From assembly GCA_963733095.1 (NCBI GenBank), contig CAVTBV010000006.1:1-64000 (forward strand): a stretch of DNA of 64,000 nucleotides. The letters are read 5' to 3'. Made by a program: the position numbers and the translations under genes. Positions 165 to 17,019 of this stretch are shown one piece after another. This stretch comes from Candidatus Bathyarchaeota archaeon (GTDB taxonomy: Archaea > Thermoproteota > Bathyarchaeia > Bathyarchaeales > Bathycorpusculaceae). The stretch's first letter is position 1. Every line of letters begins with the position of its first letter. The notes beneath the pieces are model-generated. The model ran no database searches and was not told the DNA's origin. It saw only the letters and a program-made list of their open reading frames with translations.

Positions 165-638
165 ATGATTGTTTTTGAAAAATTAGCAAGCCAAGTTAAC
201 GTTGAAAAGATTAAGGAAGTTACAGCTAACAGGCAAGATGCAATGAGGGGTAGAGTAAGAACTAAGTTAAGCGAGTCAGAGGATTTAGTAATTAACTTGC
301 CTCGAGGTCAACCTATAGGGCAAGGCGACATTTTTGGGCCTTCAGAGAAAGGAGACTATTATAAAATATTAATCGAACCAGAACTTGTAATAAAAGTGAC
401 TTTAGATAAAGCACGGAGCGATGATGCTGTAGAGAAAGCAGCAAAATTGGGTTACAATTTAGGTAATCGGCATCTTGAGGTATTGATTGAGGATGGTGCT
501 GTATTTGTTCCACTTACGATAGGAGAAGAAAAGGTCAGGAAGATACTGGAGTCTATGAAGTTGCCGATAAAGTTTGAATCGGTTCAGAAGGTAATATCAA
601 TGTCTTCAGCAGGATACCACGGAGGAGAAGAGGAATAA
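165..638 (+). CDS. ureE: urease accessory protein UreE
   Basis: AAKLGYNLGNRH motif, N-terminal RGRVR..LPRG; first of the ureEFGD run; no His-rich tail. Confidence 0.9.
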   Translation: MIVFEKLASQVNVEKIKEVTANRQDAMRGRVRTKLSESEDLVINLPRGQPIGQGDIFGPSEKGDYYKILIEPELVIKVTLDKARSDDAVEKAAKLGYNLGNRHLEVLIEDGAVFVPLTIGEEKVRKILESMKLPIKFESVQKVISMSSAGYHGGEEE

Positions 639-667
639 TTTTAACTGAAAACGCGAAACTACTAAAT

Positions 668-1309
668 TTGCTGAGGACCTCAGACTCGTTTTTTCCCATG
701 GGGTCCTTCACCATGTCGCAAGGCATGGAACAGGTTATTAATGAAAACTTGTTGCCAAAGGAAAAAATGGCAAAAATTATAGAAATTTATTTAGAAAAGA
801 TATGGAAAGCATTCGACCTTGGCATCTTCTATCAAGCGTTAGATGCAATCGAAAAGAAAGATATTGAATTGCTAAAAAAAGTAGATGAAGTTTGTTATTC
901 TTCTAAGGTGACTGAAGAAAATAGGTCAGCCATGATCAAAATGGGAAGAAGCATGATGAATGTAACCGAATTCAACGAAGATACGATAGGAAAATCTTAC
1001 AAGGGGTTAATAAAATCTGATGCTGCCTATGGAACTTATCCAGTAGTTTTAGCGCTTGTATCTGTTCAGTTTAACTTCAAAGATTTAGGGGCTCTATCTC
1101 TTTTGTATGTTAATATCATGGAAGTCATTGCTTCATTAGTGAGAATGGGAATAATCGATTACATTGAAGCGCAAAAAATTCTAATTGACGCTGTAAAATC
1201 AATTCAGATAAAGCCTCAAAAACTAACTGACTTGCATCAGACTTTTCCCTTGGCGGATATCGCCTCGATGAGACACGAATTAAGCACAAGTAGAATGTTC
1301 ATGAGCTAA
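668..1309 (+). CDS. ureF: urease accessory protein UreF
   Basis: SDSFFPMGSFTMSQGME N-terminus and DIASMRHE..SRMFMS C-terminus; true start may lie a few codons upstream (about 641). Confidence 0.92.
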   Translation: MLRTSDSFFPMGSFTMSQGMEQVINENLLPKEKMAKIIEIYLEKIWKAFDLGIFYQALDAIEKKDIELLKKVDEVCYSSKVTEENRSAMIKMGRSMMNVTEFNEDTIGKSYKGLIKSDAAYGTYPVVLALVSVQFNFKDLGALSLLYVNIMEVIASLVRMGIIDYIEAQKILIDAVKSIQIKPQKLTDLHQTFPLADIASMRHELSTSRMFMS

Positions 1310-1330
1310 AAAAGGAGACTGATATGAAAA

Positions 1331-1978
1331 ATGAGTAATAGAACTGTTAGAATTGGAATGGGCGGCGCAATAGGCTGTGGAAAAACTGAATTAATTGAGA
1401 AATTGGTCCCAAAGCTAGTTGAACAAGGCTTCAAGGTTGGAGTAATATCAAACGACGCGTACTCCAAAGAAGATGCAAGAAGACTAGCAGCAAGACTTGG
1501 CAAAGACATCGACCCAAATCTAATCTTAGGAATAGAGACAGGAGGATGCCCCCATACTGCCGTACGAGATGACCCGTCGATGAACATAGATGCTGCTGAG
1601 AAACTTGAGCGAGACAATCCTGGATTAGATGTACTCTTGATAGAATCCGGAGGAGACAATATAACATTGACTTTTAGTCCAAAATTAGCGGACTTCTTCA
1701 TTTATATGGTTGATGTGGCTGGCGGAGACAAAACGATTCGGAAAGGGGGATTGGGAATCAAAAAATCCGATTTACTTGTTATAAATAAAATAGACTTAGC
1801 CCCTTATGTTGAATCTACCATTCTTGAATCGGGGATTAAGACTGCCAACCTTGATCTTATGATGCAAGATGCAAAGAAACTACGAGGTGACAAACCAACA
1901 GTCATGTTGTCTTTAAAAGATGGTACCGGATTGGATGATGTGATGAAAATAATTAAAGAAAAGGCACTTTTCAAATGA
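1331..1978 (+). CDS. ureG: urease accessory GTPase UreG
   Basis: P-loop GAIGCGKT, ETGGCPH nickel motif, ESGGDN, NKIDLA. Confidence 0.95.
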   Translation: MSNRTVRIGMGGAIGCGKTELIEKLVPKLVEQGFKVGVISNDAYSKEDARRLAARLGKDIDPNLILGIETGGCPHTAVRDDPSMNIDAAEKLERDNPGLDVLLIESGGDNITLTFSPKLADFFIYMVDVAGGDKTIRKGGLGIKKSDLLVINKIDLAPYVESTILESGIKTANLDLMMQDAKKLRGDKPTVMLSLKDGTGLDDVMKIIKEKALFK

Positions 1979-2883
1979 CACAGGAAGTGTTTCAAGAAGT
2001 GATTCAAGACCTAAGCGGTTTACCGTCCGCTTTCTCGGAGTTTGAGGCAGAACAAACGAGGCTTGCTGTTGGCTCTCCAGGCAAAAATGCTGTCGCAGAA
2101 TTAACGTTCACGAAATTTGGTGACAAGACATATCTTACTGATGTTTATAATGAAGTTCCAGCGAAAATTCTAAGAGAACTCTACTATGACCCTTACCTGC
2201 CTGGGTTGCCTTATATTCTTTTCATGAACCCGACAGGCGGGATAGTTCAAGGTGACCGTTATTTTTACAAATTTAGATTGAAAGAGGGCGCAGAAGCATT
2301 CATCACTGACACAATGGCTACAAAAATATACAAAATGGATTTAAATTATTCTAGCAAAGAAATAGATGTTTATCTTGGAAAGAACAGTCGTTTGGAGTTT
2401 TTGCCCAGGGAAACTATAGTTTTTGTTGATTCGCGTTGGCATCAAAGAGTAGTATTTCATGTCAGTGAGGGTTCAAAACTTCTTTATTGTGACATTTTCT
2501 GCCCTGGACGGATTGCTATGGGAGAGTTTTGGGACTTTGAAATCTATTCTTCCAAGGTAGTTATTGAAAAGGATGGAGAACTCTTGCTTAATGAAAGCAC
2601 TATTTTCACGAGAAAAGACAAAGAAGTGCTCGATGTTATTTTCGGTGATAACAAGTTTTATCTGAAGGCTTATTGGTACTCTGATAAAGCAGTTAATGCT
2701 AAGAATGAAATTGATTTTGGAAATACTTATGGCGGGGCTACACAAATGGCAAACAATAGGGGGCTCATCATCAAGGCACTTTCTAAGGATTTAAATGATT
2801 TAGAGAAGCTGCAAGGTGAGATTTGGAAGGTTTTCAGGAAAGCTGAGACTGGAATGGCCGTTCCTTCACTTAGGATGTATTGA
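1975..2883 (+). CDS. ureD: urease accessory protein UreD
   Basis: NPTGGIVQGD, ATKIYKM, PGRIAMGE motifs; ATGA overlap with ureG. Confidence 0.92.
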   Translation: MTQEVFQEVIQDLSGLPSAFSEFEAEQTRLAVGSPGKNAVAELTFTKFGDKTYLTDVYNEVPAKILRELYYDPYLPGLPYILFMNPTGGIVQGDRYFYKFRLKEGAEAFITDTMATKIYKMDLNYSSKEIDVYLGKNSRLEFLPRETIVFVDSRWHQRVVFHVSEGSKLLYCDIFCPGRIAMGEFWDFEIYSSKVVIEKDGELLLNESTIFTRKDKEVLDVIFGDNKFYLKAYWYSDKAVNAKNEIDFGNTYGGATQMANNRGLIIKALSKDLNDLEKLQGEIWKVFRKAETGMAVPSLRMY

Positions 2884-3025: not shown

Positions 3026-3838
3026 TTATGTCTGCTCAAGAGTTCCTTGAGCAGCTTTGATTGCAGCTTTATCTATAATCCGTCCCCGTAAAATGTAGGC
3101 AAAACCAACAGCAATGAACCCACCTAAAATTGGTCCCAAGACGTACAGCCAATAATGAGCAAAATTCAACAATATTAGCTGAGGGCCAAAAGAACGTGCA
3201 GGATTCATCGACGCACCGCTTATAGGACCTGCCCAGAGCCCTGCGAGGGCTATGTAACCCCCGACAGCAATAGCTGAGAGTGGTCCAACATTCTGAGCCT
3301 CGGATGCGGTTCCCAAAATCGTGCTCACTAAACCAACCGTAAGTATAATCTCCATTAAAAATGCTTGGAAATCATTTATTCCAGCGCCAGGTAGAGTTGC
3401 CCCAAACATTCCCACTTTTCCGAACATAGAAAATAGAAGCAAACATGCAATAACTGAGCCAATCAACTGAGCGATTATGTATCCTGGAACTCTACGCCAC
3501 GGAAAGTCGCCCCGAGCAGCAAAAGCTATGCTTACAACTGGATTTAGATGCGCTCCAGACACATTTCCCATGAATAGAATAATCACCATCACCATTAGAC
3601 CAGGTGCTACAACTACTGCAATAGGGCTAATTGCTCCAGCATTCATCAAGTAAACTATATTTCCACCCACAGCAACTAACACAAGAAAAAATGTGCCTAA
3701 AATCTCTGAGAACAGCCGCCTAAGCTCATGCTTTGGATCGTCAATATTCCTTCTCTTTGGACCCTCAAATTCTAAGAATATTTCTAGCCTTTCTAAGAAA
3801 CTTTTCTTGCTCTTTAACCTGGATTCAGAAGTAGACAA
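3026..3838 (-). CDS. MIP family aquaporin
   Basis: SGAHLNPVVS and GASMNPARS loops, six hydrophobic segments. Confidence 0.93.
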   Translation of the reverse strand: MSTSESRLKSKKSFLERLEIFLEFEGPKRRNIDDPKHELRRLFSEILGTFFLVLVAVGGNIVYLMNAGAISPIAVVVAPGLMVMVIILFMGNVSGAHLNPVVSIAFAARGDFPWRRVPGYIIAQLIGSVIACLLLFSMFGKVGMFGATLPGAGINDFQAFLMEIILTVGLVSTILGTASEAQNVGPLSAIAVGGYIALAGLWAGPISGASMNPARSFGPQLILLNFAHYWLYVLGPILGGFIAVGFAYILRGRIIDKAAIKAAQGTLEQT

Positions 3839-4344
3839 TTTCCAATCGCCTTAATCCTCACTGTATTACATTAAACGATTTAAAATATTAAATTTAACAA
3901 ACATACAATTTCCAAGAAAGTTTGGCAGAACCTCATTTTAATCCATTGATATTAGGAAAATTCTACTGAACCTGTTTTCTTACAGTTGTAGATAATCAGG
4001 GTTATTGCTTCAAATATTAACGTATTGGCTTGTCACTTAGACACGGTCAAAGCAAACTAAGCAGTAATGGTAAAGTTATTAGCCGTTCAAATTAAAGAGA
4101 CGGGCATCGCAGTTTTCAACTCCCTTATACTTGCCATCAGGGCAAAAAAAGCGCGGCGTATCAGGGTACATTTGTTGCGAAGATGCGGCGGATTTGGTGT
4201 GAGGATTGCCGTGTAGTTCAGATGCAGTTTAAGCAAACAAACGGCAAATGGGAATAAAGTGTGCATGATTCAGAACAGAGAACCAACTCAAACGGTCTGC
4301 CAAATAAGATGTAAAATAAGGAAGAGCGTGCGCATAGGACGCAG

Positions 4345-4782
4345 TTACTTGGCTTCTTCTGGAAAGAGATTCTTTCCTTTTTCTGTGATTTTGATAGCAC
4401 CTATTTGTTTAAACATATCTATGTTGTCAGTGACATTCCAGTATTCTGCAAGTTTGCCATTAACTATGCGATAGATGTCAACACCCTTAGTTGTTATCTT
4501 GTTGCTAGTAGGCGCCAATCCAAAAAACTCGTCTTTATGGGTCCCATTGTAAGTAAGCCGAACCCACACCTTATCCCCTTCAGCAATTATGTCTTCAATA
4601 GTTTCATGCCAATCGGGGAAGGCTTTGAGACCCATAGCAAATAGTTGTTTGAGTCCTTCTCGGTCTACCTTGTTGGTGTGGTCAACATAATCTGGTGCTA
4701 TAAACTCGTCAAAATCCAAGTTTCGCTTATTGTAGGCTTCAATCCACCTACGAACAATTGCCTTATTCTCTTCCAATGACAT
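4345..4782 (-). CDS. SnoaL-like ester cyclase
   Basis: EENKAIVRR, AFPD, IIAEGDKV, GTHKDEFFG, GKLAEYW pattern. Confidence 0.9.
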   Translation of the reverse strand: MSLEENKAIVRRWIEAYNKRNLDFDEFIAPDYVDHTNKVDREGLKQLFAMGLKAFPDWHETIEDIIAEGDKVWVRLTYNGTHKDEFFGLAPTSNKITTKGVDIYRIVNGKLAEYWNVTDNIDMFKQIGAIKITEKGKNLFPEEAK

Positions 4783-4816
4783 ATAACATCACCAGCTTGT
4801 TTCTCTTTTTTAATAC

Positions 4817-4921
4817 TTAACGGTTCTGATTTAGGTTCTGAGCAAACTCTTCAGCATGCTTGAGGTCTTCAACATTAGGTCTACCCATTTATTCCCCAAC
4901 TAAATTCATCAACAATACCAT
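4817..4921 (-). pseudogene. flavodoxin C-terminal remnant
   Basis: Minus strand reads IVDEFSWGING then, after a frameshift, RPNVEDLKHAEEFAQNLNQNR*, matching archaeal flavodoxin ends (GRPNxEDLKHAEEFA); rest of gene missing. Confidence 0.6.
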
Positions 4922-5295
4922 GCTCTACACTCAACTCATTGGGATGTTGTTTTCAAGAAATAGAGCAATAGATTCTGTCAGAAGTAGTAGAACAAACAAT
5001 TTTTTGTATACTACTACTTTTAAGTCTCTAAACTTTGGATTTACATCTACAACCAAAAATCCCAACGTCGACCTATTGATAGAGTAGCAAACCAAACATG
5101 GCAAAATTAGGTTGAATCAGGTTGCTTTGATGATTTGTTCATTGGCAACGGGAGCTGGATGAACAGTAGGCGCTGTAGAAGTTGTTGTTGTTGTTGCTGC
5201 AACTACATTCTGCACAACAGTTGCAACAACAATCAAAGACAAAAAACGTACCCAAAAATCAAACCTAAAATCATTCTATTTTTAGAGTCTTGAAC

Positions 5296-6223
5296 TTATT
5301 CTACGAATTGTTCAAGATACTTTACGATTGACTCATAAGCTTGTTTATAATCAGGACCAAACCTGTCGCCGTTGCGGTCACATCGAATTAGGGCTTCACC
5401 ATCAAATTCTCCCACAGGCTCATTGTACTTAATCCTGAAAACACAAAAGGTAACCTCCTCCCCGATGCTTGAAAGGTGAGCAAAGGATACTTGACCCCTG
5501 GCAGATGTAAATCATATTTTTCATCGGCTCTGGGTTCGAAGATGAAATCCTTCGTCTCCTCAAGCCAAGAAGACTCTGCAAGAAGCGACCCATTATACAG
5601 TGGGAAACAAGATTGCTCTTTCAATTCAGCCTTTTTCCTAACCTCACCAATCTTCTCAGTTAAAGTATCGCTGTCCCAAAGTTCAAGTTTAAGTTCTGTG
5701 CATCTAACTTTGCTTGCTCACTAAAATAGGCAGTAGCTAAGACAATTACTCGCTCGCAACCAGACGAACGCTTTGCCTGATGAGACTTCAAAACGGTTGA
5801 ACTCGAAACCAACTCAGTTTTCGGGTACCTTGCGGCTTGAATCGAAACTTTCTCGCCATCCTTAACAGCTAAAAAGTCAATGCCTGAATCCGATGAATGC
5901 TTTCCAATTTGGACTTCATATCCCAATTCTTCAAGAAGCCATTTAATAAAACGATCAAATTCCTTTTCAGACAGACTCTCGACTGAATAAGCACTTGCTT
6001 TAGAAGGGGGGAGGGCTTCGGTTTTTTCCACGAACGTTTTTTCTACATTCGCATCCGTTGTGGCAATAGTTTTCAGGTTGCATTCTTTTTCTATTCTCCT
6101 AGCCAATTCCTCAGCTTTATCGAGGGGAATTCCCAGTCGGTCCGATAGAAAATCTACAAGGTCGATGTTTGAGTACTGGTCGATTATTTCTTTTAGGACG
6201 CCGTTGAACTTGGGGGACTGCAT
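5296..6223 (-). pseudogene. Mrr-like restriction endonuclease domain protein, frameshifted
   Basis: Starts MQSPKF at 6223; LSEKEFDRF..LGYEV..DSGID..IQAARY Mrr_cat pattern; shifts near 5685 into ELWDSDTL...YPLLTFQ and near 5450 into CVFRIKYNEPVGE...YLEQFVE*. Confidence 0.75.
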
Positions 6224-6224
6224 T

Positions 6225-7604
6225 TTATTGCTCCTTTGGTTTGTTTTTAGGTGCGTGTTTGGGGCATAATTTTCGCTTAAACTCGTCGGTGTATGAGAGG
6301 TTGATTTTTGAGTAAATTTTTCCGCAGGTATCGCAGAAGTCGTAATGGTGAATGCATACGCTTGAGTTGTCATGACTGCACTTGAACTCTAAGAGTCGAC
6401 TGTGCCTTTTTCCACACACCGAGCAGATAAAACCTGAGTCGTGTTCAAAGTATTCATTTAGGGTTTCATCCAAAGTTAGGGGTGCTTTTTTTGAGTAAAT
6501 TTTACCAGTATCTATGGATTGTCGGATACAGTTACCGCAGACGTAGAAGGAATCCTGCGTTGCGTAACCTTCCGAGAACGTTTTTCGGCAAATCGGGCAT
6601 GCAACTTCACAAGTATGGTCTATGCCTAAAATCAGTGAGGAGCGTATGGTTGAGTTGTTATCGAGGGTTACTTCAAACCTAAGTTTAGTTGTGTTGATTA
6701 TGAGCAGGTTGATGAATTTTACAGAAATGTAAGTGATGTACGATTCTTCTTCTCTCTTCAGTAGCATCTGGTAGTTAGCATGCCATTCTTGAACGTCAAA
6801 ATCGTGTTTTCTGGAGATGACTTTTTCGCGCCGCTCCCTTCTAAGCCTCTTGTCAAAGCTTCTTAGTTTAGATTTTTTCTCTTTGCTGAGGGTTAAGTCA
6901 AATAGAACCAGCTTTTCCTTAAGCAAAGCGGACAATTTTTCTTCTGCTACAACTTTCAGCTTATCAAATACTGAAGGTTCAACTTTGGCTTTAAAATCTT
7001 GAATCTCCAACTCTTCCACATTCAAGACACTTACTTCACCAATATCCCCAAGTTGAACGATATTGCCTTGTTCATCCATCAGTACAGTGATTATTTCCTC
7101 GTTTTTTGGTCTCAGTTTGTTCTGGAAGGTTGCAGAAAAATAAAACTGGAAATACCTAACGGGCTCTTTTTTGAGGACTTTAACTGAAGATATTTTTCCA
7201 TTATTTATTTGGTGATAACATTGGCGAGATTCTATCCCGGCACTGCCCTCTTTTTCTTCGTCGGTAAGTGCCTCGTTGCAATGTTCACACGCAAAAGAAG
7301 CATCCTTAAAATAACTTCTAATCGATGCTTCAATTTTTTTCTTGGGGCTGACTAAAATTTGGCATAGAACACCGTTTTCTAAACATTCTTTGAGTATCTG
7401 CTGGAATGCCGGGCTTCCGGATGTTAGTAGAGGGATTTTTTTCTCTCGTGACAGCGCAGGGTGATATGTGTATTCTTGGCTTGTATTGTTTGGGTAATTT
7501 ACAGTGAAGACATCCTCAGATTGATCAGTTATCTCGCCTTCTTTCGACTTGACATATGCTTGGATGAATTGGCGAATTTGTTTATCTGAGGACTTTGTGC
7601 TCAA
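6225..7604 (-). CDS. uncharacterised multi-zinc-finger protein (YqhG-like SNF2 partner)
   Basis: 459 aa; CEHC..CYH, CPIC, CGNC, CSVC, CSHD..CIHH, CDTC, CPKH; basic coiled coil; TTG start overlaps the helicase TGA. Confidence 0.8.
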   Translation of the reverse strand: MSTKSSDKQIRQFIQAYVKSKEGEITDQSEDVFTVNYPNNTSQEYTYHPALSREKKIPLLTSGSPAFQQILKECLENGVLCQILVSPKKKIEASIRSYFKDASFACEHCNEALTDEEKEGSAGIESRQCYHQINNGKISSVKVLKKEPVRYFQFYFSATFQNKLRPKNEEIITVLMDEQGNIVQLGDIGEVSVLNVEELEIQDFKAKVEPSVFDKLKVVAEEKLSALLKEKLVLFDLTLSKEKKSKLRSFDKRLRRERREKVISRKHDFDVQEWHANYQMLLKREEESYITYISVKFINLLIINTTKLRFEVTLDNNSTIRSSLILGIDHTCEVACPICRKTFSEGYATQDSFYVCGNCIRQSIDTGKIYSKKAPLTLDETLNEYFEHDSGFICSVCGKRHSRLLEFKCSHDNSSVCIHHYDFCDTCGKIYSKINLSYTDEFKRKLCPKHAPKNKPKEQ

Positions 7605-9529
7605 TCAAGAACCCCTTGGGTAAATTTTTCCGCTAATTCCTGGTTTTTTCTAGAAACCGTCAGGTCATTTGCTAGTTTTTCAAGTTCTGTTTTGAGGTCT
7701 AAACGCGAGTTGCTTCTGAGTAGAATATCTGCAATGGTTTTTTGTATGTCTTGTGCTCCTTCTTTTAGTTCGGCAAGGACCGTCTCCATCTTGCCTATGG
7801 TCATTGTGAAGAGCTCTATTTTTTGGTAGAGGATATGGAGAACATAATCGTCGATGGTGTCTTTGACGCTTAAGTTAAAAACTGTGATGTCGCGTTCTTG
7901 TTTAAAGCGGTGGATTCGCCCTATTCTTTGCTCGATCTTCATGGGGTTCCAGTGCAAATCGTAATTGAACATGACACAGCAGTTCTGAAGGTTCAGGCCT
8001 TCAGCCGCAGCGTCGGTGGCGACAAGATACCTTATTTCCCCATTCCTAAAACCTTCGATCACTACATCCCTTTCCTTCTGGTTCATATCGCCCAAGTAAA
8101 CAGCAGCCTTCCCAAACTCCCTATCCAGCATATTCTTAATGTTGTGCGCCGTGATCTTTCGCAGGCAAAATATCAACGCTTGCTCCTTTGGAATCTCGTA
8201 CAAAACGGTTCTTAGCAACTCCATTTTTGCACCCTTAACTTTCGCCGCCATCTCAATCAACTTACCTGCGACTTCAGCTTCCATCGGGAACCGCTCTTTC
8301 CTCCTAGTTAAGGATTCAACTGCGGCAGCCGGCGAACTCGAGAAGGACTGCTGAAGAGTAATCGCTTGAAAAACTAAAATCGCGTTGCTTTGGGACTCAC
8401 TGAATCGTCGATTCGGATTCTCCGCCATGAGCGCTTCAATAGTCCTGAAATGGTTCTTGCTTACGTCACGCAAATATTCGGTTGCTTGATCGATAAATTC
8501 TCGTTCGCTCTGGTTTGCTTCAAGTGTTCTTGAGTCTACACACCGTTTTGTAAATGGGATGCCCGTTTGTTCTCTTCGGGTTCGGCACATTACGTCTCGA
8601 AGATTTTGTCTTAAGTGATAAACTTGTTCTGGTCTTACGACGCGGCTTTTGGCGTCTTCGGCAAACCTGGAAATAAACGAACGTTCACTTTCAAGAAGCC
8701 CCGGCTGAATTAAATCTACGATACTGTACAAGTCAGTTAGCCTGTTGCATAGGGGCGTGGCGGTAAGCAGCAAGAAATGGTTCTTTCTTAGGTTTGCCAG
8801 ACAAGCCCTGCCTTTGCTGTGGGTATTTCTGAATGTGTGAGCTTCATCGACTACAATCAAGTCCCAGGTTCGGCTTGCGACCTCATCGAATTTTCTGGCT
8901 AAAAGGTTATGGGAACATATTATTCTGTCATCGATCTTGAGGTTAACATGCTCCTTTGAATTATTAGCTATCGTGAATGTTTCTGAGAATTTTTCAGACA
9001 TTTCAGCTTTCCATTGCGACAGTAGGCTCTTGGGTGAAACAATCAGAATGGAGTTAATTTCCTCTCTTAGAAGCAGCTCTTTCATGATGATGCCGGCTTC
9101 GATTGTTTTTCCAAGACCTACTTCGTCAGCAAGGATAGCGTTTCCATTCATCTCGTTTATTACTTGTAGTGCTGTCTGCATCTGGAAATTATAGGGGATT
9201 AACTTTGAATGTATGGCGTCTAAGGAGATGAGTCGATCGATTTTGCCAGTTTGTTTTATTTGTAGTGCTTCTAAATTGAGTTGAAATGTCTGAAATTTTG
9301 AAAATCTCTTCGTTTCAATTTGTTTTTTTATGTTATAGGGGTCTGAAAAGCTGAGGAAATACTTGTGTTTAGTTTTTTTGCCCGCTTGAGTATCTTCTTC
9401 ATATTCGCCAAAGAAGGTTTTTTCGGGCGACTTTACGGATTCGACTGGCGCTTTTTTGTGTCGTGACGCTTTTTCCGCGTTTTCTTTCGAGGATTTCTTG
9501 GTTTTTGGCATCTGCTCGTCAATTGTCAT
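7601..9529 (-). CDS. SNF2-family helicase (YqhH/HepA-like)
   Basis: ILADEVGLGKT, DEAH, LLLTATP, AEGLNLQ, WNPMKIEQRIGRIHR; start placed at MTIDEQ after AGAGGGA. Confidence 0.93.
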   Translation of the reverse strand: MTIDEQMPKTKKSSKENAEKASRHKKAPVESVKSPEKTFFGEYEEDTQAGKKTKHKYFLSFSDPYNIKKQIETKRFSKFQTFQLNLEALQIKQTGKIDRLISLDAIHSKLIPYNFQMQTALQVINEMNGNAILADEVGLGKTIEAGIIMKELLLREEINSILIVSPKSLLSQWKAEMSEKFSETFTIANNSKEHVNLKIDDRIICSHNLLARKFDEVASRTWDLIVVDEAHTFRNTHSKGRACLANLRKNHFLLLTATPLCNRLTDLYSIVDLIQPGLLESERSFISRFAEDAKSRVVRPEQVYHLRQNLRDVMCRTRREQTGIPFTKRCVDSRTLEANQSEREFIDQATEYLRDVSKNHFRTIEALMAENPNRRFSESQSNAILVFQAITLQQSFSSSPAAAVESLTRRKERFPMEAEVAGKLIEMAAKVKGAKMELLRTVLYEIPKEQALIFCLRKITAHNIKNMLDREFGKAAVYLGDMNQKERDVVIEGFRNGEIRYLVATDAAAEGLNLQNCCVMFNYDLHWNPMKIEQRIGRIHRFKQERDITVFNLSVKDTIDDYVLHILYQKIELFTMTIGKMETVLAELKEGAQDIQKTIADILLRSNSRLDLKTELEKLANDLTVSRKNQELAEKFTQGVLD

Positions 9530-9787
9530 TAGAGTTCCCTCTTTACTGAATAGGATTGCCGGCACTCGCGGCATTTAGCTTTGGAGTTATTAGGCAAGAG
9601 AATCGCGGAGTATTTGGTATCTGAGTATAAAAAGATGAAGCAAGCAAAAACTTGGTTTTTGCAGGGTGTCTCATGTCTTTGGATTGAAATAATTTACTGT
9701 TTCAACTAAGTGAGGAAGGAATATTTCGTTTGATAGGGGATGCACCTTTTGACTTGAGGGAGGTTTAATTCAAAAAGCTTCTTCCAG

Positions 9788-10348
9788 CTATAACCAAACG
9801 GGCTTTCCATCAACAACTTCCCTATGTTGCGGCTCAGGACATTGCAAGCCCAAAGCCGAAAAAACGCTCTCTTCCGTCTCCCCAGCCACCGCAACCTCCT
9901 CTTTCATCAACCCTTCACTGTACTTCAACCTAAACCCCTTCGATATTGCATAACCCGCCAGCCACATGTTATGGTCCGCTGAACCCGTGCGAATAAGCTC
10001 TTGAACACCAAACGTCTGTTCAGTTGCACGGTAAAAATCAACCTGAAAAAGACAGCCCTCAAAAGGATAGTTTATCTTTATCACACTTTTCCCAGCACAA
10101 ATTCCCTGAGCTTTCTCTTTTTTTAATAATTGAACAATCTGGTTCCAGTTACAATCAGCGCCAACCGCCACAAAATCGACGTCCCCGACTGTCGGTTTCT
10201 GTCTTCTAATAGAGCCAACAACAGCAAGCCTGTGACATAAGGGCTTCACAATATGTTCAACTCGATTGGCGAGTGTCTGTGCTTTTGCTAACTCAAGCTT
10301 TTTTAAAATTACAGGCCCTTCTCCGCCGAATAACTTTATTTGCTTCAT
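9788..10348 (-). CDS. minimal DNA polymerase X (palm+thumb only)
   Basis: GSIRR..GDVD, QVDFY third Asp, TGSADHN, EESVFSALGL..PEPQHRE; 186 aa. Confidence 0.85.
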   Translation of the reverse strand: MKQIKLFGGEGPVILKKLELAKAQTLANRVEHIVKPLCHRLAVVGSIRRQKPTVGDVDFVAVGADCNWNQIVQLLKKEKAQGICAGKSVIKINYPFEGCLFQVDFYRATEQTFGVQELIRTGSADHNMWLAGYAISKGFRLKYSEGLMKEEVAVAGETEESVFSALGLQCPEPQHREVVDGKPVWL

Positions 10349-10423
10349 GGTCAGTTCCGTTCAATGGTGACAGGAAATTTACGTATTTCGTTCTTTCCCC
10401 AAAGCTGAGTTGATAGAGCTCTT

Positions 10424-10909
10424 TTAGATGGGTTTTCTGTGGTTTATGATGTCACACACTAAATCAGGGTTTTTAGAGGAAAACACAAAGATTTTTCCTT
10501 GATTGGGAGCAATCTCAACAGCCTCTCCAAACGATGTCGTATGAGCCAATGAACCGTCAATTCCATACCTGACGCCAACCCCAAAGTATCTGCCGAGAGA
10601 GGCTCTGGTTTTTTTGCAGGATGAAATTTCGTTGAGCGCGAATGATTTCTTATCGAGCCGCCCATACTCAACTAAGAGTCTATCGTTATTGACTTGTATG
10701 CGAAGCCCTCTATAATTCCAAAAGACCAACAAAAGAACAGCCAAAATCGCCCAGGTGAACACAACCCAAAGAAGATCCTCAAACATCAACCCTTCTCTGA
10801 ACAGGACAACCCCAAAAGTCACAATAGCACCTATCAATCCAATCATAACAAATAAGCCCTTAACTAAAGCCCCTGCAGGCACCCATTCGCTGTACTTTAC
10901 ATTTTCCAT
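10424..10909 (-). CDS. membrane protein with PH-like soluble domain
   Basis: Two TM helices then a beta-rich GVGVRY..FVFSSKNPD domain. Confidence 0.65.
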   Translation of the reverse strand: MENVKYSEWVPAGALVKGLFVMIGLIGAIVTFGVVLFREGLMFEDLLWVVFTWAILAVLLLVFWNYRGLRIQVNNDRLLVEYGRLDKKSFALNEISSCKKTRASLGRYFGVGVRYGIDGSLAHTTSFGEAVEIAPNQGKIFVFSSKNPDLVCDIINHRKPI

Positions 10910-11003
10910 ATCTACGCTATCATTGGGTGACCAAATAAATTTTTGCCAAAACCCCAAGCGAGAGGCACACAAAAATGCGTGCCTACGCCTTATGTTGTGA
11001 GGC

Positions 11004-11651
11004 TTATTTTTCCTTCAATTCTGGGATTTGTTGGGTAATCATGTCCCAGTCTTCAGCAACAGCCTTTTTTATCATGGGTTTGACGTTTGCAAATACCTGT
11101 GGAAGCATAAACGTCATCCAGCCTTTAATGACCACCACTTGGTCTTTGAAGTTTAGCAGAGGAAACAGCCATCCAATTGCTGCGGGAAATCGGTCAGGTG
11201 GAATTTTACTCGACATGATTCCACCGATTGAAGCTTGTTGCGTTATCGTTGTTCTTTCTCTCAGAATCGGGTAAAGATGGGCGTCTTCTTTGTCTAAATG
11301 AATCCGCAGATGCGAATTTAGAACCGCCGTAGCTCGGGCTGTGAGGAGTGGGTCGGGCGTTTTTTGAAGATGCATTGTTTTTAGCACGTCAACCATCTTG
11401 TCGAGTTCCCGATGATCCATCAAGTACGCCCTAGCCACAAGAGGCGCAACATTGTCTACTGCGGGAAAAACCGCTGCTTCCTCTCCCTTAGCATGGTAAT
11501 CCAAGATTTCATCCATAACATGCAAGCGATTCAAAACAGGCATCAAATCCCCGCCGCCACGCGCTATGTTAAGGACTGAGGAATCAATCTGCGTCATGTC
11601 TCGGCGAAACGCGTTATGGAAGCAAAGAACTATATCGATTGGGCTTGACAA
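11004..11651 (-). CDS. hemerythrin (HHE) domain protein
   Basis: HNAFRRD, HAKGEE, DH, HLDKEDAHLYP. Confidence 0.88.
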   Translation of the reverse strand: MSSPIDIVLCFHNAFRRDMTQIDSSVLNIARGGGDLMPVLNRLHVMDEILDYHAKGEEAAVFPAVDNVAPLVARAYLMDHRELDKMVDVLKTMHLQKTPDPLLTARATAVLNSHLRIHLDKEDAHLYPILRERTTITQQASIGGIMSSKIPPDRFPAAIGWLFPLLNFKDQVVVIKGWMTFMLPQVFANVKPMIKKAVAEDWDMITQQIPELKEK

Positions 11652-11771
11652 AAAAATAACTCCACTATGGAAAAGGGGTAAAATGGATTATTAACATTCC
11701 TGTAAAGAGGGCACTTTTGGATGAATAATCCTATAGCTGAACAAAAATTTTGGTTAAAAAGAGGAATTTTT

Positions 11772-11800
11772 ACCCCGTCCCGAAAGACTGGGGTTTGCCT
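11772..11800. mobile_element. IS200/IS605-type terminal hairpin remnant
   Basis: ACCCCGTC-CCGAAA-GACTGGGGT followed by TTGCCTTG, resembling IS605/TnpB/IscB end hairpins; no tnpA or tnpB nearby. Confidence 0.55.
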
Positions 11801-11859
11801 TGATAGGTCGCTAAAGTCTGATTTTTGCTCATCATCTCCTTCCTTGTCTGTTTTCGGTT

Positions 11860-11976
11860 TTAATTAGCTAAATTTTCTTTGAGAAATCTTCGGTATTTTA
11901 TGTTATAGTACACAAAGGCTGCGGTTAACGAGCTTGTGCATAGCACAATTAGGGGAATGCTTGTTTCTGCAATCAC
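11860..11976 (-). CDS. 38-aa single-TM peptide
   Basis: GTG start after AGGTGA; MIAETSIPLIVLCTSSLTAAFVYYNIKYRRFLKENLAN*. Confidence 0.45.
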   Translation of the reverse strand: MIAETSIPLIVLCTSSLTAAFVYYNIKYRRFLKENLAN

Positions 11977-12112
11977 ATTTTTTCACCTATACGTGTGGGA
12001 AGTACAGGGTTTCTTTTGGAGCGATTTTCTTTGGGTATATTTTTTCCATTTTTCCACCATTGTTTTTGATATTGATTAGTGGTTAAATCGATATAAGGGT
12101 GTTTGTGATTTG

Positions 12113-12129
12113 TTCATAATTATTATGAA
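12113..12129. promoter_or_regulatory. perfect palindrome, candidate operator
   Basis: TTCATAAT-T-ATTATGAA in an AT-rich intergenic region upstream of minus-strand mini-ORFs. Confidence 0.4.
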
Positions 12130-12218
12130 AAGTTGAATAAAAATGATGTTTTAGCTTTTAATATAACGCAAAAGTATTGAGAGTGTGTTGTAAAATGAAC
12201 GTTTGACGAATAATCACA

Positions 12219-12869
12219 CTAAATTTTCTGAGCATGAATCACATTCCAGCTCGATTTTCTCTTCCTAAAAACCTCAACAGAACCATAGCCCGCAGAATAC
12301 AAAAGCTTCTTCATATCTTCCAACGGCACAAGACATACCTGCGTCTTAGCAATGATTTCTGCGTTCTTCATTTCGTACACTCCATCCTTAATCATCTCAT
12401 TTACGATTAGCAAGAATCCTCCCTTCTTTAAAACGCGCTTTATCTCTCGGAACGCATCAGCAAGGTTGGGCCAGAAATAATAGGTTTCAATCGCTGTCAC
12501 CAAATCAAAAAACTCAGCTTCGAAACCCATCTTCTCAGCTAAGCCATGTACAATTTCCACACTGTTCTTGGCAACGAGTTTTCTGTTGATTTGTCTTGAA
12601 TAATCCACCATGTCTAATGACTGGTCTAAACCGTACACTTTGCCCTGACTAGCCCGCCTCGCTAAGCGACTTGTGGTTTTGCCTCCCCCACAGCCCACAT
12701 CCAAAATTACAAAACCTGATTTGATGCTTACGTGTTTTAGTCCCCAAGTGGTCAAGTCCCAGTGTTCCTTGTTCATGTTTGCAGCGACTGTTCTGCCTAA
12801 AGCACCCTCTGGGCACTTATACTGGCTCCAATGGTCCTTGCCAGGTGTGTTTTTGTTCTGGGGTTGCAT
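12219..12869 (-). CDS. class I SAM-dependent methyltransferase
   Basis: ILDVGCGGG, YGLD, FDLVTAIETYYFW, RVLKKGG. Confidence 0.9.
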   Translation of the reverse strand: MQPQNKNTPGKDHWSQYKCPEGALGRTVAANMNKEHWDLTTWGLKHVSIKSGFVILDVGCGGGKTTSRLARRASQGKVYGLDQSLDMVDYSRQINRKLVAKNSVEIVHGLAEKMGFEAEFFDLVTAIETYYFWPNLADAFREIKRVLKKGGFLLIVNEMIKDGVYEMKNAEIIAKTQVCLVPLEDMKKLLYSAGYGSVEVFRKRKSSWNVIHAQKI

Positions 12870-12928
12870 TCTGAGAAATCAAGAGCCCAATTTAATAAAC
12901 TATATGTGCCTTGAGTTGATGTACAAGT

Positions 12929-13960
12929 TTAGAATGCTCGTTGTCGAGCGGTATGGCGTTTTGGGGGAAGCTCTTTCTTCTTTGGTTTACCTTTTGGTCG
13001 CCTTTTGATTCTAATTGAAGAAAGAACTTCAACAACCTGCTTTAGTTGATCATCATTAAGCACCGTTTCAGCGGGTTTCGCTTTGACATTTATGTTTTTT
13101 ATCATTTCAAAGAATTTTTTTCTCTCCAGTGCGTATGTTTTTTCTCTCATGTATGCACAGTGAAGGTCTCCATCATCAGTCTCTACTCGCGCCTTATCAC
13201 TTACCTGCAAAAACTCAATCCCTACTTTGCCACGTTTACTCAAGTCAGCCAAGTAGGCATAATCTCCAAGTTTAACCTGACTAAAAAAGTGGTAACCGAC
13301 ATCTCCCAAAACTGAGAGGTTAGTTTGCCAATTTGTTTCCTTCTTTATTTGGCGTTGAGTTTTTTTAGATATTCCAGTGGAAACCCCAATGTACCATGTA
13401 TTGATATGAGCGTTTGTCCAATCTTTGATTTGTGTGTGAGGTTTAGGTTTTTTCAGGTTTGTTTTTTTTGTTTTCTTCTGGGCTGAATTCCACATCAGCT
13501 TATATTTTTTTAATTCACCCATCGATTTGGAAGTGTCCCATAAGCTTTGTGAAAAGAAGTTTTTTGCTTCTTCTGCTTCGGGTCCTTCAAGTAGGATTCC
13601 TGTTTCAAGGTTGCTTTCAAACGCCGCTTCTGTTAAGGTAGCTGATGTTATTAGAGCGGAATCGTCAAAAATGTAGATGTTTGAATGAAAATTTTCATGC
13701 GATTTGATGCTGATGCCCTTGAAGTGTTCCATGAGGTACTGTATTTCGTACGGATTGACTTCATCGGTTTTGACGGCAAAATCATTTACTCGGAAGACAA
13801 ATCGGATATCTGCTGGAGGGTTTTTTAGGATTTCTTGTGAAAAAACTCGGTGTGCGCCCAAGCCAATGGATGGAGTGCATACCCATAGAATCTGTTTTGT
13901 GTCTAATGATTTCTGAAGAATCGTTTCGTATAGTTCTGTATTGCACAGGAATCTGGTCAT
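12929..13960 (-). CDS. phospholipase D-like (nuclease-type) domain protein with degenerate HKD motif
   Basis: FHSNIYIFDDSALITSATLT..NLETG versus canonical HAKIYIFD..SANLT..NxE. Confidence 0.75.
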   Translation of the reverse strand: MTRFLCNTELYETILQKSLDTKQILWVCTPSIGLGAHRVFSQEILKNPPADIRFVFRVNDFAVKTDEVNPYEIQYLMEHFKGISIKSHENFHSNIYIFDDSALITSATLTEAAFESNLETGILLEGPEAEEAKNFFSQSLWDTSKSMGELKKYKLMWNSAQKKTKKTNLKKPKPHTQIKDWTNAHINTWYIGVSTGISKKTQRQIKKETNWQTNLSVLGDVGYHFFSQVKLGDYAYLADLSKRGKVGIEFLQVSDKARVETDDGDLHCAYMREKTYALERKKFFEMIKNINVKAKPAETVLNDDQLKQVVEVLSSIRIKRRPKGKPKKKELPPKRHTARQRAF

Positions 13961-14179
13961 AGGTTGAAGATGTTTATTATGAAATAAAAGTTTTCCCAAA
14001 GTTCAACCTATGATATCATTTAACGTGAGTTAGCTGAATGCCTTTAAACTGCAGTCGTATCTGTCTAGCTGAAGGGGCTTCTGCATTTCCCCTTTATCCT
14101 TTTGTCTCCAAAGCTCCATGTTACCATTTGTTCTATAAACAAAAGATAAAAAAACAAACGCTCACAATACTCTTCTGTC

Positions 14180-14740
14180 TTGGTGTTAGAGTTGGCGTTG
14201 GATTGCTTTCTGCCCGACAAATCTATCCTGATAGATGCCTCAGGATGGAGCGACCTTTTGCTAGGCGTTGTAATAGGCGCACTCAAGCCGCCCCACCCAA
14301 TGCTTATGGAACGCCGAATCCCCACCTCATCCTTCCAACCACCAAACTTCAAAAACAAAAAATACTTAGAAGACGCCGTAAAAATCGTCAACGAAATAAT
14401 CTCCGTGATGCAGCCTGATTCTGAAACCTGCTTTAAGGTTTGTTCAGAATACGTCCTAACCAGCGTTGCCCTGTACCTGGAAAGTCAAGGATTCAAAGTT
14501 CAAAGAGTCGAATCCACAGGAGAGCTGAAGCCGCTGGTTGAACGAGCCTACATTCGGTGGTGCATCGAGAAGGGTGTTCCTGAAGAAATGCTCAAGGACA
14601 AAAGGAGGTTTTGGAATTTTTTGGAGTGGGTTGCTGAAAACCCACATCTACGCGAGGGTCTTGTAAAGACGGGTTGGTCAAGCTGGGAGCAAAAGTGGCG
14701 GGAAGAAATCTTTAAAAAACCCCTAAACCTACACCGCTAA
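14180..14740 (+). CDS. hypothetical protein, RNase H-like N-terminal motif
   Basis: ILIDASGWSDLLLGVVIG resembles IDDAGxGxLxxGVVIG; 186 aa. Confidence 0.6.
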   Translation: MVLELALDCFLPDKSILIDASGWSDLLLGVVIGALKPPHPMLMERRIPTSSFQPPNFKNKKYLEDAVKIVNEIISVMQPDSETCFKVCSEYVLTSVALYLESQGFKVQRVESTGELKPLVERAYIRWCIEKGVPEEMLKDKRRFWNFLEWVAENPHLREGLVKTGWSSWEQKWREEIFKKPLNLHR

Positions 14741-14792
14741 AATATTCAAAGTAGAAAGGGATTTTAAAAGTCTATTATCCTTTCTAACTCGT

Positions 14793-14999
14793 ATGTCCAT
14801 GAATCGGCAACTTGAACAACGTTTAAGGGATCTTAGGGCTGAATATGTCTATGGGCAGGAATCATTAGTTGAACTGGAAAGCAAGTGGGCGGCTCTTGAA
14901 GGCACTCTTCTTGGTTTAGGCAGCACAATTCATGTTTTAGAAGAAGAGCTTTCCAAAGAAAATGGCAGACATAATGGACTAAAACGGCAAATCAGGTAA
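14793..14999 (+). CDS. small coiled-coil protein
   Basis: QLEQRLRDLRAEY..LEGTLL...IHVLEEEL heptad pattern. Confidence 0.6.
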   Translation: MSMNRQLEQRLRDLRAEYVYGQESLVELESKWAALEGTLLGLGSTIHVLEEELSKENGRHNGLKRQIR

Positions 15000-15008
15000 A
15001 CCAGCGAA

Positions 15009-15584
15009 ATGTCGAGTAATCCCAAAAAACCCAAACAATTAACTCTGGACAGCCTGCCCCTTGCTCAAAAGCAGGAATCCACAAAATCAGCGGCTGGGGC
15101 TAAAGAAAAACAAATAATCATAACCGGAATTGCCGCATCAACCAAAGAGACTGAGTTAACGCTTAAAGTAAGTCTCAAGTTGGTCCCTTCAAAGATCTCT
15201 TTTGCGAAGGTTCACTCTGACCTATGGTTTGACGACCAACCAATCAAATCAGTCGCCCTTAGAGTATTGAAGGGGCCTTTGGCAACGGATGAATCCGAAT
15301 ACGCCGCCGTTTTGGACATGACTGGGATACCTGCAGGCACGCATAAGGTAAAAGTGGAAATGTATGAGTTATGGTCTCCAGATGAAAAATTCTGTCGAAC
15401 CTTCAAGGAAGTAACGTTGGATTATCTTCCTCAAACCCGCGAATCAAGGTTTGTGAAGGTTCCGAATGTGAAAAGTTTTGCCTGTAGAGATCTAGAATTT
15501 GTCTTTGAATCGGAGAAAGAAGTTTACCGGGATATTGAAATAACAATGAAGAAAGAGCAGTTACGCGAAAGGGACGATTGGTAG
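15009..15584 (+). CDS. hypothetical protein (beta-sandwich-like)
   Basis: 191-aa ORF, LDMTGIPAGTHKVKVEM, ends ERDDW. Confidence 0.7.
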   Translation: MSSNPKKPKQLTLDSLPLAQKQESTKSAAGAKEKQIIITGIAASTKETELTLKVSLKLVPSKISFAKVHSDLWFDDQPIKSVALRVLKGPLATDESEYAAVLDMTGIPAGTHKVKVEMYELWSPDEKFCRTFKEVTLDYLPQTRESRFVKVPNVKSFACRDLEFVFESEKEVYRDIEITMKKEQLRERDDW

Positions 15585-15899
15585 TCCCTCTGACCAGCTT
15601 AAGATTATTTCTTTTTTCCTTTAGGCGGAAGTTGATTTAACAGTGCTTTCTTTTTTGCTTCTTTTTCTCGTTCCTGTTTCTTTTTTTGTGCAAGCTGTGT
15701 GTTTTTATTTTTTCTGCTCATTGTACTCATATTTCGACACTACAAGCAAACAAGTAACGGTTCACACTCTAAAATGTTACCTTTTTTAATTAAGAACCTT
15801 CCATTTGTCAAAATACTTATCCGCTGGTTTTGAATCGAAATCATTATGAGGCAAAGCTAACTTATTGGTTTAGCATACTCTGTTTGAAGTGTGTAAGTT

Positions 15900-16058
15900 T
15901 TGACGACTAAGACTTTACTTTGCGGATGTGTTTACGAGGAAAACGAGTGGATGCTTGTTCGCATTAAAGAATGTGAGAAGCATCACAAGGAGCGGCATAA
16001 AAAGGTCGAGTACAGGCCGAAAGCGGAATGTAACCGAAACGACACCCGAGGCGAATAG
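15900..16058 (+). CDS. 52-aa Cys/His metal-binding protein
   Basis: TTG start; MTTKTLLCGCVYEENEWMLVRIKECEKHHKE...; below the ORF-track size cut-off. Confidence 0.5.
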   Translation: MTTKTLLCGCVYEENEWMLVRIKECEKHHKERHKKVEYRPKAECNRNDTRGE

Positions 16059-16062
16059 AGCC

Positions 16063-17019
16063 TCAAGTGTTATTCAGCTTTGTTTCTGTTTCTGCTACTG
16101 GTTTAGCGGGTTTTCTGTAGAAGAGCAGGGGTAACCCGACTAGTGGAAGCGACAGCATCCAAAGATCCAGATTGTGACCCAAAATCCACGCGTACCACTG
16201 GTTCCAACCGCCAAAGAAAATCCATGTCAAATAATTCCACAAAAAGTATACACCTAATGTTGTCAAAATAGCACCGATTGCTCCAAACCTTAAATTCTGC
16301 ACATTTTCTGTTCCCACCGATTTCATGGCAAAGTAAGCTGTGTAGATTGCGAGTGCAATTAACCCAACCAAAGTGGCAAAAAAACTAACAAAGTATTGAG
16401 GGGTGCTGAGGACATATCCAAATCCCTGTTGAATTACAGTGACCAACCACATTCCGCTATTGTTAAGCCAGAAAGACAAAATGTAGAATATACCCGCAAT
16501 CATAGACCATTTAATCGCTGCCTTCTCCGGTTTGTTTATCCCCAGATTCCTTGCAAGCGCGAACAGGCAAATCGGGATGCTTATAGATCCTACTAAGCAC
16601 GGTAACCCTGTTGATAAAAAGAAGCTAAGGTTAATTCCAAGTTCTGTTGGTAAGGTACCCCAGATGCCTGACGGCAAGAGACTTAACCAGTACAGGGCTT
16701 CTAATACCAAGACTATCTTCAGAACCTTGTAGGTGGAGGATTTCGGTAGACCTTTTTTGGTTAAAGCAAGAGCAACGGCGACAAGGGCAATTAGACTGCC
16801 TGCGAATCGGACTATAAGACCGGGCAACGCTGATATATCCGTAATGAAAATGCCGAAATTGAATGTATTCCCGATATTCCATTCGCCCCACCATTGAAGC
16901 GTGAACATTGCATGCAAAGTAAACAAGAAGTATGAGGCAACAACTATCAGCAACCCTACTTTCAGCGGAGTAACTTCTTTATGCTCTGCCATTAAAATCA
17001 CCGTTGGATTGAAAAACAA
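16063..17019 (-). CDS. polytopic membrane protein
   Basis: About 8 hydrophobic segments. Confidence 0.8.
   Translation of the reverse strand: MFFNPTVILMAEHKEVTPLKVGLLIVVASYFLFTLHAMFTLQWWGEWNIGNTFNFGIFITDISALPGLIVRFAGSLIALVAVALALTKKGLPKSSTYKVLKIVLVLEALYWLSLLPSGIWGTLPTELGINLSFFLSTGLPCLVGSISIPICLFALARNLGINKPEKAAIKWSMIAGIFYILSFWLNNSGMWLVTVIQQGFGYVLSTPQYFVSFFATLVGLIALAIYTAYFAMKSVGTENVQNLRFGAIGAILTTLGVYFLWNYLTWIFFGGWNQWYAWILGHNLDLWMLSLPLVGLPLLFYRKPAKPVAETETKLNNT

Follow-up and report, generated by a model that had tools for sequence, protein, structure and literature searches.

What task does a Swi2/Snf2 ATPase serve in an archaeon in which its gene is followed by one for a protein with zinc ribbons and by another for a protein with an Mrr-type restriction fold? 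This question is raised by three adjacent genes at positions 5296 to 9574, on the minus strand, of a 64,000-nucleotide stretch of Candidatus Bathyarchaeota archaeon DNA (assembly GCA_963733095.1, contig CAVTBV010000006.1, positions 1 to 64,000), the whole of which we refer to as the window. A sequence-only reading of this DNA had taken the trio for a DNA-translocating defence or repair complex. We propose instead, at a level of confidence evenly balanced between belief and doubt, that the trio represents a variant form of the YqhH(HepA)/YqhG module, i.e., a RapA-type Swi2/Snf2 motor built from two polypeptides and joined by a third subunit, which would evict stalled complexes. The DNA-translocating complex of the earlier reading is kept in this proposal, with defence as a possible function and not the best-supported one.

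The three genes are co-oriented on the minus strand and tightly coupled, in the order and at the positions reported previously. Gene 1 (7601–9574; open reading frame (ORF), Pfam and motifs) encodes a short SNF2 (Swi2/Snf2) ATPase of the YqhH/HepA type with 657 amino acids (aa), and its true start may be the ATG at 9529 (Met16), since its orthologs align only from about residue 16. Gene 2 (6225–7604; ORF) encodes a 459-aa protein from a TTG start and comprises two parts, a YqhG-like domain (residues 1–330; 6615–7604) with a fold like the Spacer/C-terminal part of RapA, recognized by hhalign and an AlphaFold2 (AF2) model, and an array of CxxC zinc ribbons (residues 331–459 with the stop codon; 6225–6614), delimited by the alignment and the positions of the pairs. 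Gene 3 (5296–6223; frames, Pfam and an ortholog model) has a PD-(D/E)xK fold of the Mrr type and carries two frameshifts. The TTGA overlap at 7601–7604, in which the SNF2 stop codon meets the TTG start of gene 2, and the 1-nucleotide gap at 6224 are both present in the DNA as described earlier; at the latter junction, the TAA stop of gene 2 is followed by this single base and then by the ATG of gene 3 at 6223.

Gene 1 is an SNF2 ATPase, matching the Pfam families SNF2-rel_dom (2.7e-33) and Helicase_C (4e-27), and the SNF2 motifs that had been called intact are all found, with motifs I, II, III and VI read as GLGKT at residue 153, DEAH at 243, TATP at 271 and QRIGRIHR at 549. The NCBIfam RapA model (NF003426) aligns to it in one stretch, residues 42–611 on model positions 69–645 of 959, with 165.4 bits. 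It is the sole SNF2-family gene found in the host genome, and it scores below every NCBIfam cut-off, including those of DrmD, DpdE and ZorD.

Gene 2 carries the link to YqhG. It has no Pfam, NCBIfam or PADLOC family at a meaningful score, and its relatives at E ≤0.001 number 47 among 1.84 billion representatives; these are mostly fragments. Gene 2 relatives with a source name come from Bathyarchaeia or Bathyarchaeota metagenome-assembled genomes (MAGs). Profile comparison by hhalign of the gene 2 family with 15 canonical YqhG proteins gives a match of 97.2% with an E-value of 3.7e-11 over 277 columns, aligning query positions 3–335 with template positions 4–300 of 319, and an L..GS motif is common to the gene 2 family and the YqhG proteins. 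Searching whole genomes with the Pfam YqhG model (the window genome and two Clostridia-type genomes), we find that the only or best candidate in all three is the gene 2 N-terminus, aligned to model positions 4–36 at weak scores (E 0.81 in the window genome, 0.06 and 0.18 in the other two). A YqhG cluster in the ESM Atlas scored 0.78, a lead only. A 680-aa Bacillota protein (genome G432) matches Pfam YqhG with 43.8 bits against a cut-off of 25, and it shares with the long gene 2 forms their CxxC array and small C-terminal domain; by this combination of matches, it is a bridge between the YqhG and gene 2 families. The gene order agrees with that of canonical pairs, as YqhG matches occur in 17 of 151 sampled Bacillota genomes and an SNF2 gene, 29–34% identical to gene 1, lies directly upstream in all 17.

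The fold of gene 2 points to RapA. With the AF2 model (predicted local distance difference test, pLDDT, 82.1; predicted template modelling score, pTM, 0.60), the top four matches in Foldseek are all E. coli RapA, with E-values from 5.7e-5 to 1.1e-4. By VIA, residues 1–307 of the model superpose on RapA 705–967 with a Z-score of 9.0, 234 aligned residues and a root-mean-square deviation (rmsd) of 7.7; five RapA entries reach Z-scores of 9.0, 8.7, 8.6, 8.1 and 6.8, and the next match stands at 4.8. In a Foldseek-independent search of 48,161 chains, RapA is the sole top row that spans more than 200 residues. The matched range, RapA 705–968, appears to be the Spacer/C-terminal part of the protein, because residue D744 falls in the Spacer domain (PMC8501970). 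Since the RapA model covers SNF2 residues 42–611 and the gene 2 fold matches RapA 705–968, most of RapA is covered by the two genes combined, and these look like a RapA-type protein in two chains. Fused SNF2-YqhG-like proteins, sought as gene 2 relatives of 805–2295 aa, were not found, which is weak evidence.

From these likenesses we derive a plausible mechanism. The SNF2 and YqhG-like chains would assemble into one RapA-like machine, whose ATP-driven movement on double-stranded DNA would pry a tightly bound protein complex off the DNA. By analogy with RapA, the likeliest target would be a stalled or post-termination RNA polymerase; the RapA Spacer touches the zinc-binding domain of beta' and inserts as a wedge where the cleft has opened (PMC8501970; bioRxiv 10.1101/2024.09.28.614012). 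In this scheme the nuclease-dead Mrr-fold protein would not cut; like the zinc ribbons, it would be an adaptor that binds DNA or the target. A B. thuringiensis yqhH knockout is sensitive to ultraviolet (UV) light (PMC10054049), which fits a function in the clearance of DNA after damage.

The zinc-binding residues of gene 2 are distributed over both of its parts. We count exactly seven C/H-x2-C/H pairs (at residues 106, 336, 356, 394, 417, 424 and 447), in keeping with the approximately seven announced by the sequence-only reading, and the basic coiled coil that it described corresponds to residues 206–300, which are helical and hold 23 K/R vs 16 D/E. The YqhG-like domain contains a Cys cluster (C106, C109 ... 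C129, H131) and a helical hairpin at about 210–288. In the family alignment, the invariant Cys residues of the array are C336, C339, C356, C359, C394, C397, C409, C424 and C427. In fold, the zinc part resembles FYVE, PHD and LIM zinc fingers weakly (Z-scores of 3–4.8), and its zinc-finger matches in Pfam are only weak.

Gene 3 is composed of three parts over 5296–6223, an N-terminal helical part, the Mrr-type fold and a conserved C-terminal domain. The Mrr_cat core named earlier is there, Pfam Mrr_cat matching residues 82–177 with 57.2 bits vs a cut-off of 21 (2.2e-15), and the 'inactive REase' (restriction endonuclease) family NA-iREase1 also matches (1.1e-6). The extra C-terminal domain emerges in the window only on reading through the frames, and it is whole in 14 of 14 orthologous loci. 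A model of an intact ortholog (pLDDT 79.8) has the PD-(D/E)xK fold at residues 77–203, and its residues 86–197 superpose on AF1548 with a Z-score of 14.2, an rmsd of 2.0 and 108 aligned residues, followed by AspBHI (12.3) and MspJI (11.4). The C-terminal domain is the best conserved part, with a mean pairwise identity of 0.59 vs 0.43 for the REase fold; no clear fold match was found for it, the weak ones being YjbR (Z-score 6.6) and Med17C (6.3).

The call of the third protein as a nuclease is not supported in the Bathyarchaeia lineage, where the canonical catalytic (E/Q)xK is missing. We aligned 14 Bathyarchaeia orthologs and the gene 3 of the window (15 rows), with the motif positions set by alignment to AF1548. 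The helix Glu is invariant in the 15 rows. The catalytic Asp position is D in 9, E in 3, G in 2 and A in 1, and the E/Q position is Q in 7, L in 6, F in 1 and H in 1. At the position of the canonical Lys, K is found in 0 of 15 rows (R in 8, I in 3, L in 2, V in 1 and A in 1), and the residue after it is K or R in 15 of 15. The third proteins of Clostridia, described below, have L-A-x-K or a variant in 6 of 6.

These residues bear on a DNA-repair nuclease complex, in which the SNF2 motor would bring a structure-specific Mrr-type nuclease to lesions or stalled forks. The UV phenotype mentioned above would suit such a complex, as would some of the neighbours, UvrA-UvrC beside the trio in one locus (L018), an MrfA-like DEAD+MZB helicase with an RNase_H_2 protein in another (L012) and, in the window, a 186-aa protein matching the DNA polymerase beta/X thumb (1.9e-12), whose gene adjoins the SNF2 gene on its upstream side in the same orientation (9788–10348, minus) and was not found beside the trio in the 14 related loci. 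However, the repair neighbours occur in single loci, 1 of 14 each, and the canonical catalytic motif is missing in the lineage. We regard this explanation as quite improbable.

As assembled, gene 3 does not form the one open frame from 5296 to 6223 that the sequence-only reading had drawn. It runs through three frames (5660–6223, lying within an ORF at 5660–6388; 5388–5717; and 5296–5511) with two frameshifts on the minus strand, the first at 5675–5690, where one G is putatively lost after TTG with the exact base inferred, and the second at 5460–5467, in a G run on the gene strand that is visible in the DNA and the frames. From the sequence, we infer that each frameshift represents one G lost at or in a G run on the gene strand, near 5680–5690 and 5460–5467. 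In 14 of 14 related loci the ortholog (304–322 aa) is uninterrupted, and the orthologs read ...NVELWD... across the first frameshift point. Behind 5466, one additional base is present in the contig of a related strain, which differs at 9 other letters over 228 bases. In the best sequencing run, 0.23 of the sampled words were present, in contigs from related strains that cover the stretch piecewise. ORFs of at least 100 aa cover 0.79 of the host genome, which is too crude a measure for assembly error. With gene 3 broken as assembled, the module in the host genome may be only partly functional.

A further step would be that the module here is a decaying remnant, in which gene 3 is a true pseudogene and genes 1 and 2 either act alone, like a plain YqhH/YqhG pair, or are being lost. 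Its two independent frameshifts speak for this, as does similar damage elsewhere in the genus. Gene 3 is also split in G829, G850 and G834 (with G000, 4 of 45 genomes), and gene 2 is shattered in G223 and G375. Counting the window copy, 4 of 15 Bathyarchaeia loci have a break in one member of the trio, with gene 1 split in L013 (G010) and gene 2 in L023 and L024 (G020 and G023). Canonical YqhH/YqhG pairs, moreover, lack the third gene, and G432 has a different one, a 535-aa Helicase_C_3 protein that is not Mrr-fold (L067 101–1708, minus). Against it, both frameshifts are single-base losses at G runs, typical of assembly errors, and the SNF2 and second genes are whole. We consider decay of the window copy a serious contender, albeit a somewhat improbable one.

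The three genes behave as one unit. The gene-neighbourhood survey advised by the sequence-only reading was run and finds the trio co-occurring in the same order in related Bathyarchaeia and Clostridia loci, including 14 of 14 in Bathyarchaeia; the lack of co-occurrence by which that reading would have been refuted is thus not seen. Within the order, gene 2 was found in 14 of the 24 genomes from its own genus, against 0 of 16 from other genera. In an even sample of the class, it is matched in 26 of 39 genomes of the genus; 15 genomes outside the genus match only parts of the gene 2 model between 227 and 453 (the helical end and the zinc ribbons) and none matches the N-terminal domain, and the full-length gene was not found in 130 other genera of the class. 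The gene 3 profile is matched in 45 of 81 genomes of the genus, or 31 of the 47 of good quality. When 41 genomes are scored for genes 2 and 3, both are present in 27, neither in 14 and none is discordant. The three genes are inherited and lost together as one evolutionary unit. Natural gene 2-gene 3 fusions exist (P0047 and the distant P0160), and a metagenome scan with the fused P0160 gave no match. As judged from the ratios of nonsynonymous to synonymous substitution rates (dN/dS) of intact copies, all three genes are under purifying selection, at 0.05–0.09 for the SNF2 gene, 0.08–0.11 for gene 2 and 0.12–0.20 for gene 3; these values are rough, with dS saturated at 1.2–2.6 and two pairs not computable.

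The unit also occurs outside the Bathyarchaeia. A search with distant 660-aa relatives of gene 2 yields 8 loci in MAGs of Clostridia/Bacillota; the Clostridia contig search used a narrow alignment that can find only near relatives of the Clostridia form. The trio is present in 7 of 7 usable Clostridia loci, the third gene in one of them by tblastn only, at the contig end. Their SNF2 proteins are 39–47% identical to gene 1 over most of its length, the partners, long YqhG-like proteins with the zinc array, are 20–22% identical to gene 2, and the Mrr_cat proteins have 322–348 aa; in L044, both the SNF2 gene and its partner are split. In a quick, unrooted SNF2 tree built with no outgroup, Bathyarchaeia group with Clostridia, apart from the haloarchaeal and YqhH-type groups, with 100 in the Shimodaira–Hasegawa-like approximate likelihood ratio test (SH-aLRT). 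The nearest SNF2 relatives of gene 1 are those of Clostridia, so that a transfer of the unit between Bacteria and Archaea must have taken place. A protein search of plasmid records finds the trio on three haloarchaeal megaplasmids, in the order 'SNF2-related protein', a middle frame (676 aa, 1095 aa or an unlisted one of up to 1378 aa) and 'restriction endonuclease'. With the YqhG profile, the middle protein of Halocatena aligns at 90% (E 1.6e-6). In Halocatena, the 138-aa third protein retains GVD...IQAK, the canonical Mrr motif, whereas the Halorhabdus one does not. On the Haloferax lucentense plasmid pSVX82-3 (L070 5864–10000, plus strand), the middle frame of the trio (up to 1378 aa) is missing from the gene table, which lists three short 'hypothetical proteins' over it on the opposite strand.

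This distribution speaks for an undescribed anti-virus or anti-plasmid system, in which the SNF2 protein and its zinc-ribbon partner would scan or sense foreign DNA and the Mrr-fold protein would be the effector or, where the motif is lost, a sensor. The module is patchy within the genus, its full-length gene 2 is missing from the other genera searched, the SNF2 tree joins Bathyarchaeia and Clostridia across domains, and three copies are carried by megaplasmids, one of them with a canonical third protein. In two of these three haloarchaeal loci (Halorhabdus, L069 432–3041, minus; Haloferax, L070 630–3479, minus) a divergent DEAD/ResIII helicase and a hypothetical protein are shared upstream, and the helicase of the Halorhabdus copy matches PADLOC PbeA (1e-41). 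Recurrent gene decay, flanks that vary between species (closest loci excepted) and the faster evolution of genes 3 and 2 than of the SNF2 gene would suit conflict as well. The surroundings and the proteins themselves argue otherwise. The flanks scanned in 13 Bathyarchaeia loci, with 67 proteins, include no integrase, transposase, restriction-modification, CRISPR or toxin-antitoxin family, and no defence or mobile-element gene was recognized in the flanks of 7 Clostridia loci, whose copies lie among ordinary housekeeping genes (dnaJ-prmA-rsmE, dnaE, amidase, gerM, rdgB). In the window, two weak PADLOC matches lie 3–4 kb upstream. One is a 356-aa protein (12929–13999, minus; 3.4 kb upstream) with no Pfam family at 1e-5 and weak DrmC matches (PLD/HKD-like, about 45 residues), and the other, adjoining it, is a small S-adenosylmethionine (SAM) methyltransferase matching mad2 (12219–12869, minus). 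The canonical catalytic motif is absent in all 15 archaeal rows and all 6 Clostridia proteins, and no copy was found in viral contigs (searched with gene 2 and with the narrow Clostridia-form alignment) or in phage records (searched with P0157). PADLOC has no model for gene 2, the SNF2 protein matches only generic DrmD, BrxH and ZorD parts, and the core pair is homologous to YqhH/YqhG. Defence is thus, in our judgement, an unlikely function of the trio. We hold it equally doubtful, and speculative, that the trio is an undescribed conflict system moving between domains, in which a RapA-type clamp-opening motor would have been recruited to attack or evict foreign DNA or transcription complexes, with a nuclease-competent form on haloarchaeal megaplasmids and nuclease-dead sensor forms in Clostridia and one Bathyarchaeia genus.

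The proposal of a two-chain RapA-type motor of YqhH/YqhG descent has to be weighed against several of our own results. Gene 1 misses the RapA equivalog cut-off (165 vs 576 bits) and, by plain sequence, is nearer to the catalytic core of Sulfolobus SSO1653 (1z63, 1.2e-36) than to RapA (3.8e-27). Pfam YqhG (PF11079) gives no hmmscan match in the 459-aa protein or in any of 34 family members, and the best YqhG score in the host genome, at the gene 2 N-terminus, is 9.4 bits vs a cut-off of 25 (E 0.81). The superpositions on RapA have a high rmsd of 7–9 Å, and in the search of 48,161 chains RapA (4s20_K) ranks third with a Z-score of 6.7, within noise by score, with short helical hairpins reaching 6.9. 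The long gene 2 form is rare, occurring in 2 of 401 sampled Bacillota genomes (the centre genome and G432). This rarity, the patchiness of the module within the genus, the repeated decay of its genes, and its haloarchaeal megaplasmid location with one canonical nuclease motif are all easier to reconcile with an accessory or conflict system than with a core transcription factor. Moreover, archaeal RNA polymerase differs from the bacterial enzyme whose RapA contacts are known.

Other genes near the trio are recorded here as observations. A TFIIB/TFB gene adjoins it or lies near it in three of the most closely related loci (L011, 4144–5109; L012, 895–1866; L013, 9137–10249), which may be plain local synteny, and a creatininase recurs beside it in three (L017, L021 and L022). 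In the window, the genes for urease accessory protein UreF, a UreG-like protein (cobW family) and UreD occupy 165–2883 (plus strand) and are followed by a MIP channel gene at 3026–3838, and 24369–28252 (plus strand) holds a cluster of genes for a 4Fe-4S protein, a protein with a CCG domain and both NiFe hydrogenase subunits, small and large. Scans for bacterial promoters (9 vs 8.0 expected) and bacterial terminators (4 vs 5.0 expected) are at chance, and such bacterial models do not suit an archaeal host.

Should YqhG-type proteins, which have no role assigned to them, prove to be the Spacer/C-terminal part of RapA in detached form, a two-gene unit of wide occurrence could be tested as a RapA-like machine. 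The three-gene form raises two further questions, namely what the zinc-ribbon array and a nuclease-dead restriction fold add to the motor, and what led to the transfer of the unit among Clostridia, Halobacteria and a single genus of Bathyarchaeia. To our knowledge, it would be the first archaeal candidate for a factor that uses ATP to remove RNA polymerase or other complexes from DNA. The value of the window copy itself is lower, with its gene 3 broken as assembled.

How, then, does the trio compare with known systems? With Zorya ZorD (which has a fused Mrr-like nuclease), DISARM DrmD, BREX BrxH and DpdE, it shares an SNF2 motor and an Mrr-type fold. In PADLOC, gene 1 matches the generic helicase parts of DrmD, BrxH, ZorD and DpdE, gene 3 matches Mrr tails, including that of ZorD, and no model matches the second protein (0 of 3 tested). 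Apart from the weak DrmC-like and mad2-like matches, PADLOC run on the trio and 10 neighbouring proteins (3026–17019) finds none of the partners that define DISARM, BREX, Zorya, Dpd or Hma, such as ZorA/B, DrmA/B, PglX/PglZ or the Dpd genes. None of the PADLOC models tested spans the three genes, so that, as the sequence-only reading expected, no system described there covers the trio; its broader statement that the trio matches no named system falls short, as genes 1 and 2 are a divergent form of the YqhH/YqhG pair that this reading had itself cited as known.

With AF1548, AspBHI and MspJI, gene 3 has in common the fold of its middle domain, with Mrr_cat above the cut-off, and it differs in the loss of (E/Q)xK, in its N-terminal helical part and in its distinct C-terminal domain. 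E. coli RapA resembles the first two genes in the SNF2 core, matched along residues 42–611, and in the part of RapA (705–968) that the gene 2 model resembles; here, however, two polypeptides stand in place of one, both fall below the family cut-offs, and zinc ribbons and a third subunit are added. A full-text literature search turned up, in its listings and quoted passages, no paper linking YqhG to the RapA Spacer/C-terminal part, and B. subtilis YqhH is called HepA/RapA and described as poorly characterised in PMC7385302. The YqhH/YqhG pair differs in that gene 2 lies below the Pfam cut-off and bears a zinc-ribbon array found in one sampled YqhG member only (G432), and in that the trio has a third, Mrr-fold gene that canonical pairs lack and an archaeal host. 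Nevertheless, it is this pair that shares with the trio both the layout of a short SNF2 ATPase gene followed by a co-oriented partner, as in the 17 Bacillota genomes, and a partner homologous, by profile comparison, to residues 1–330 of gene 2.

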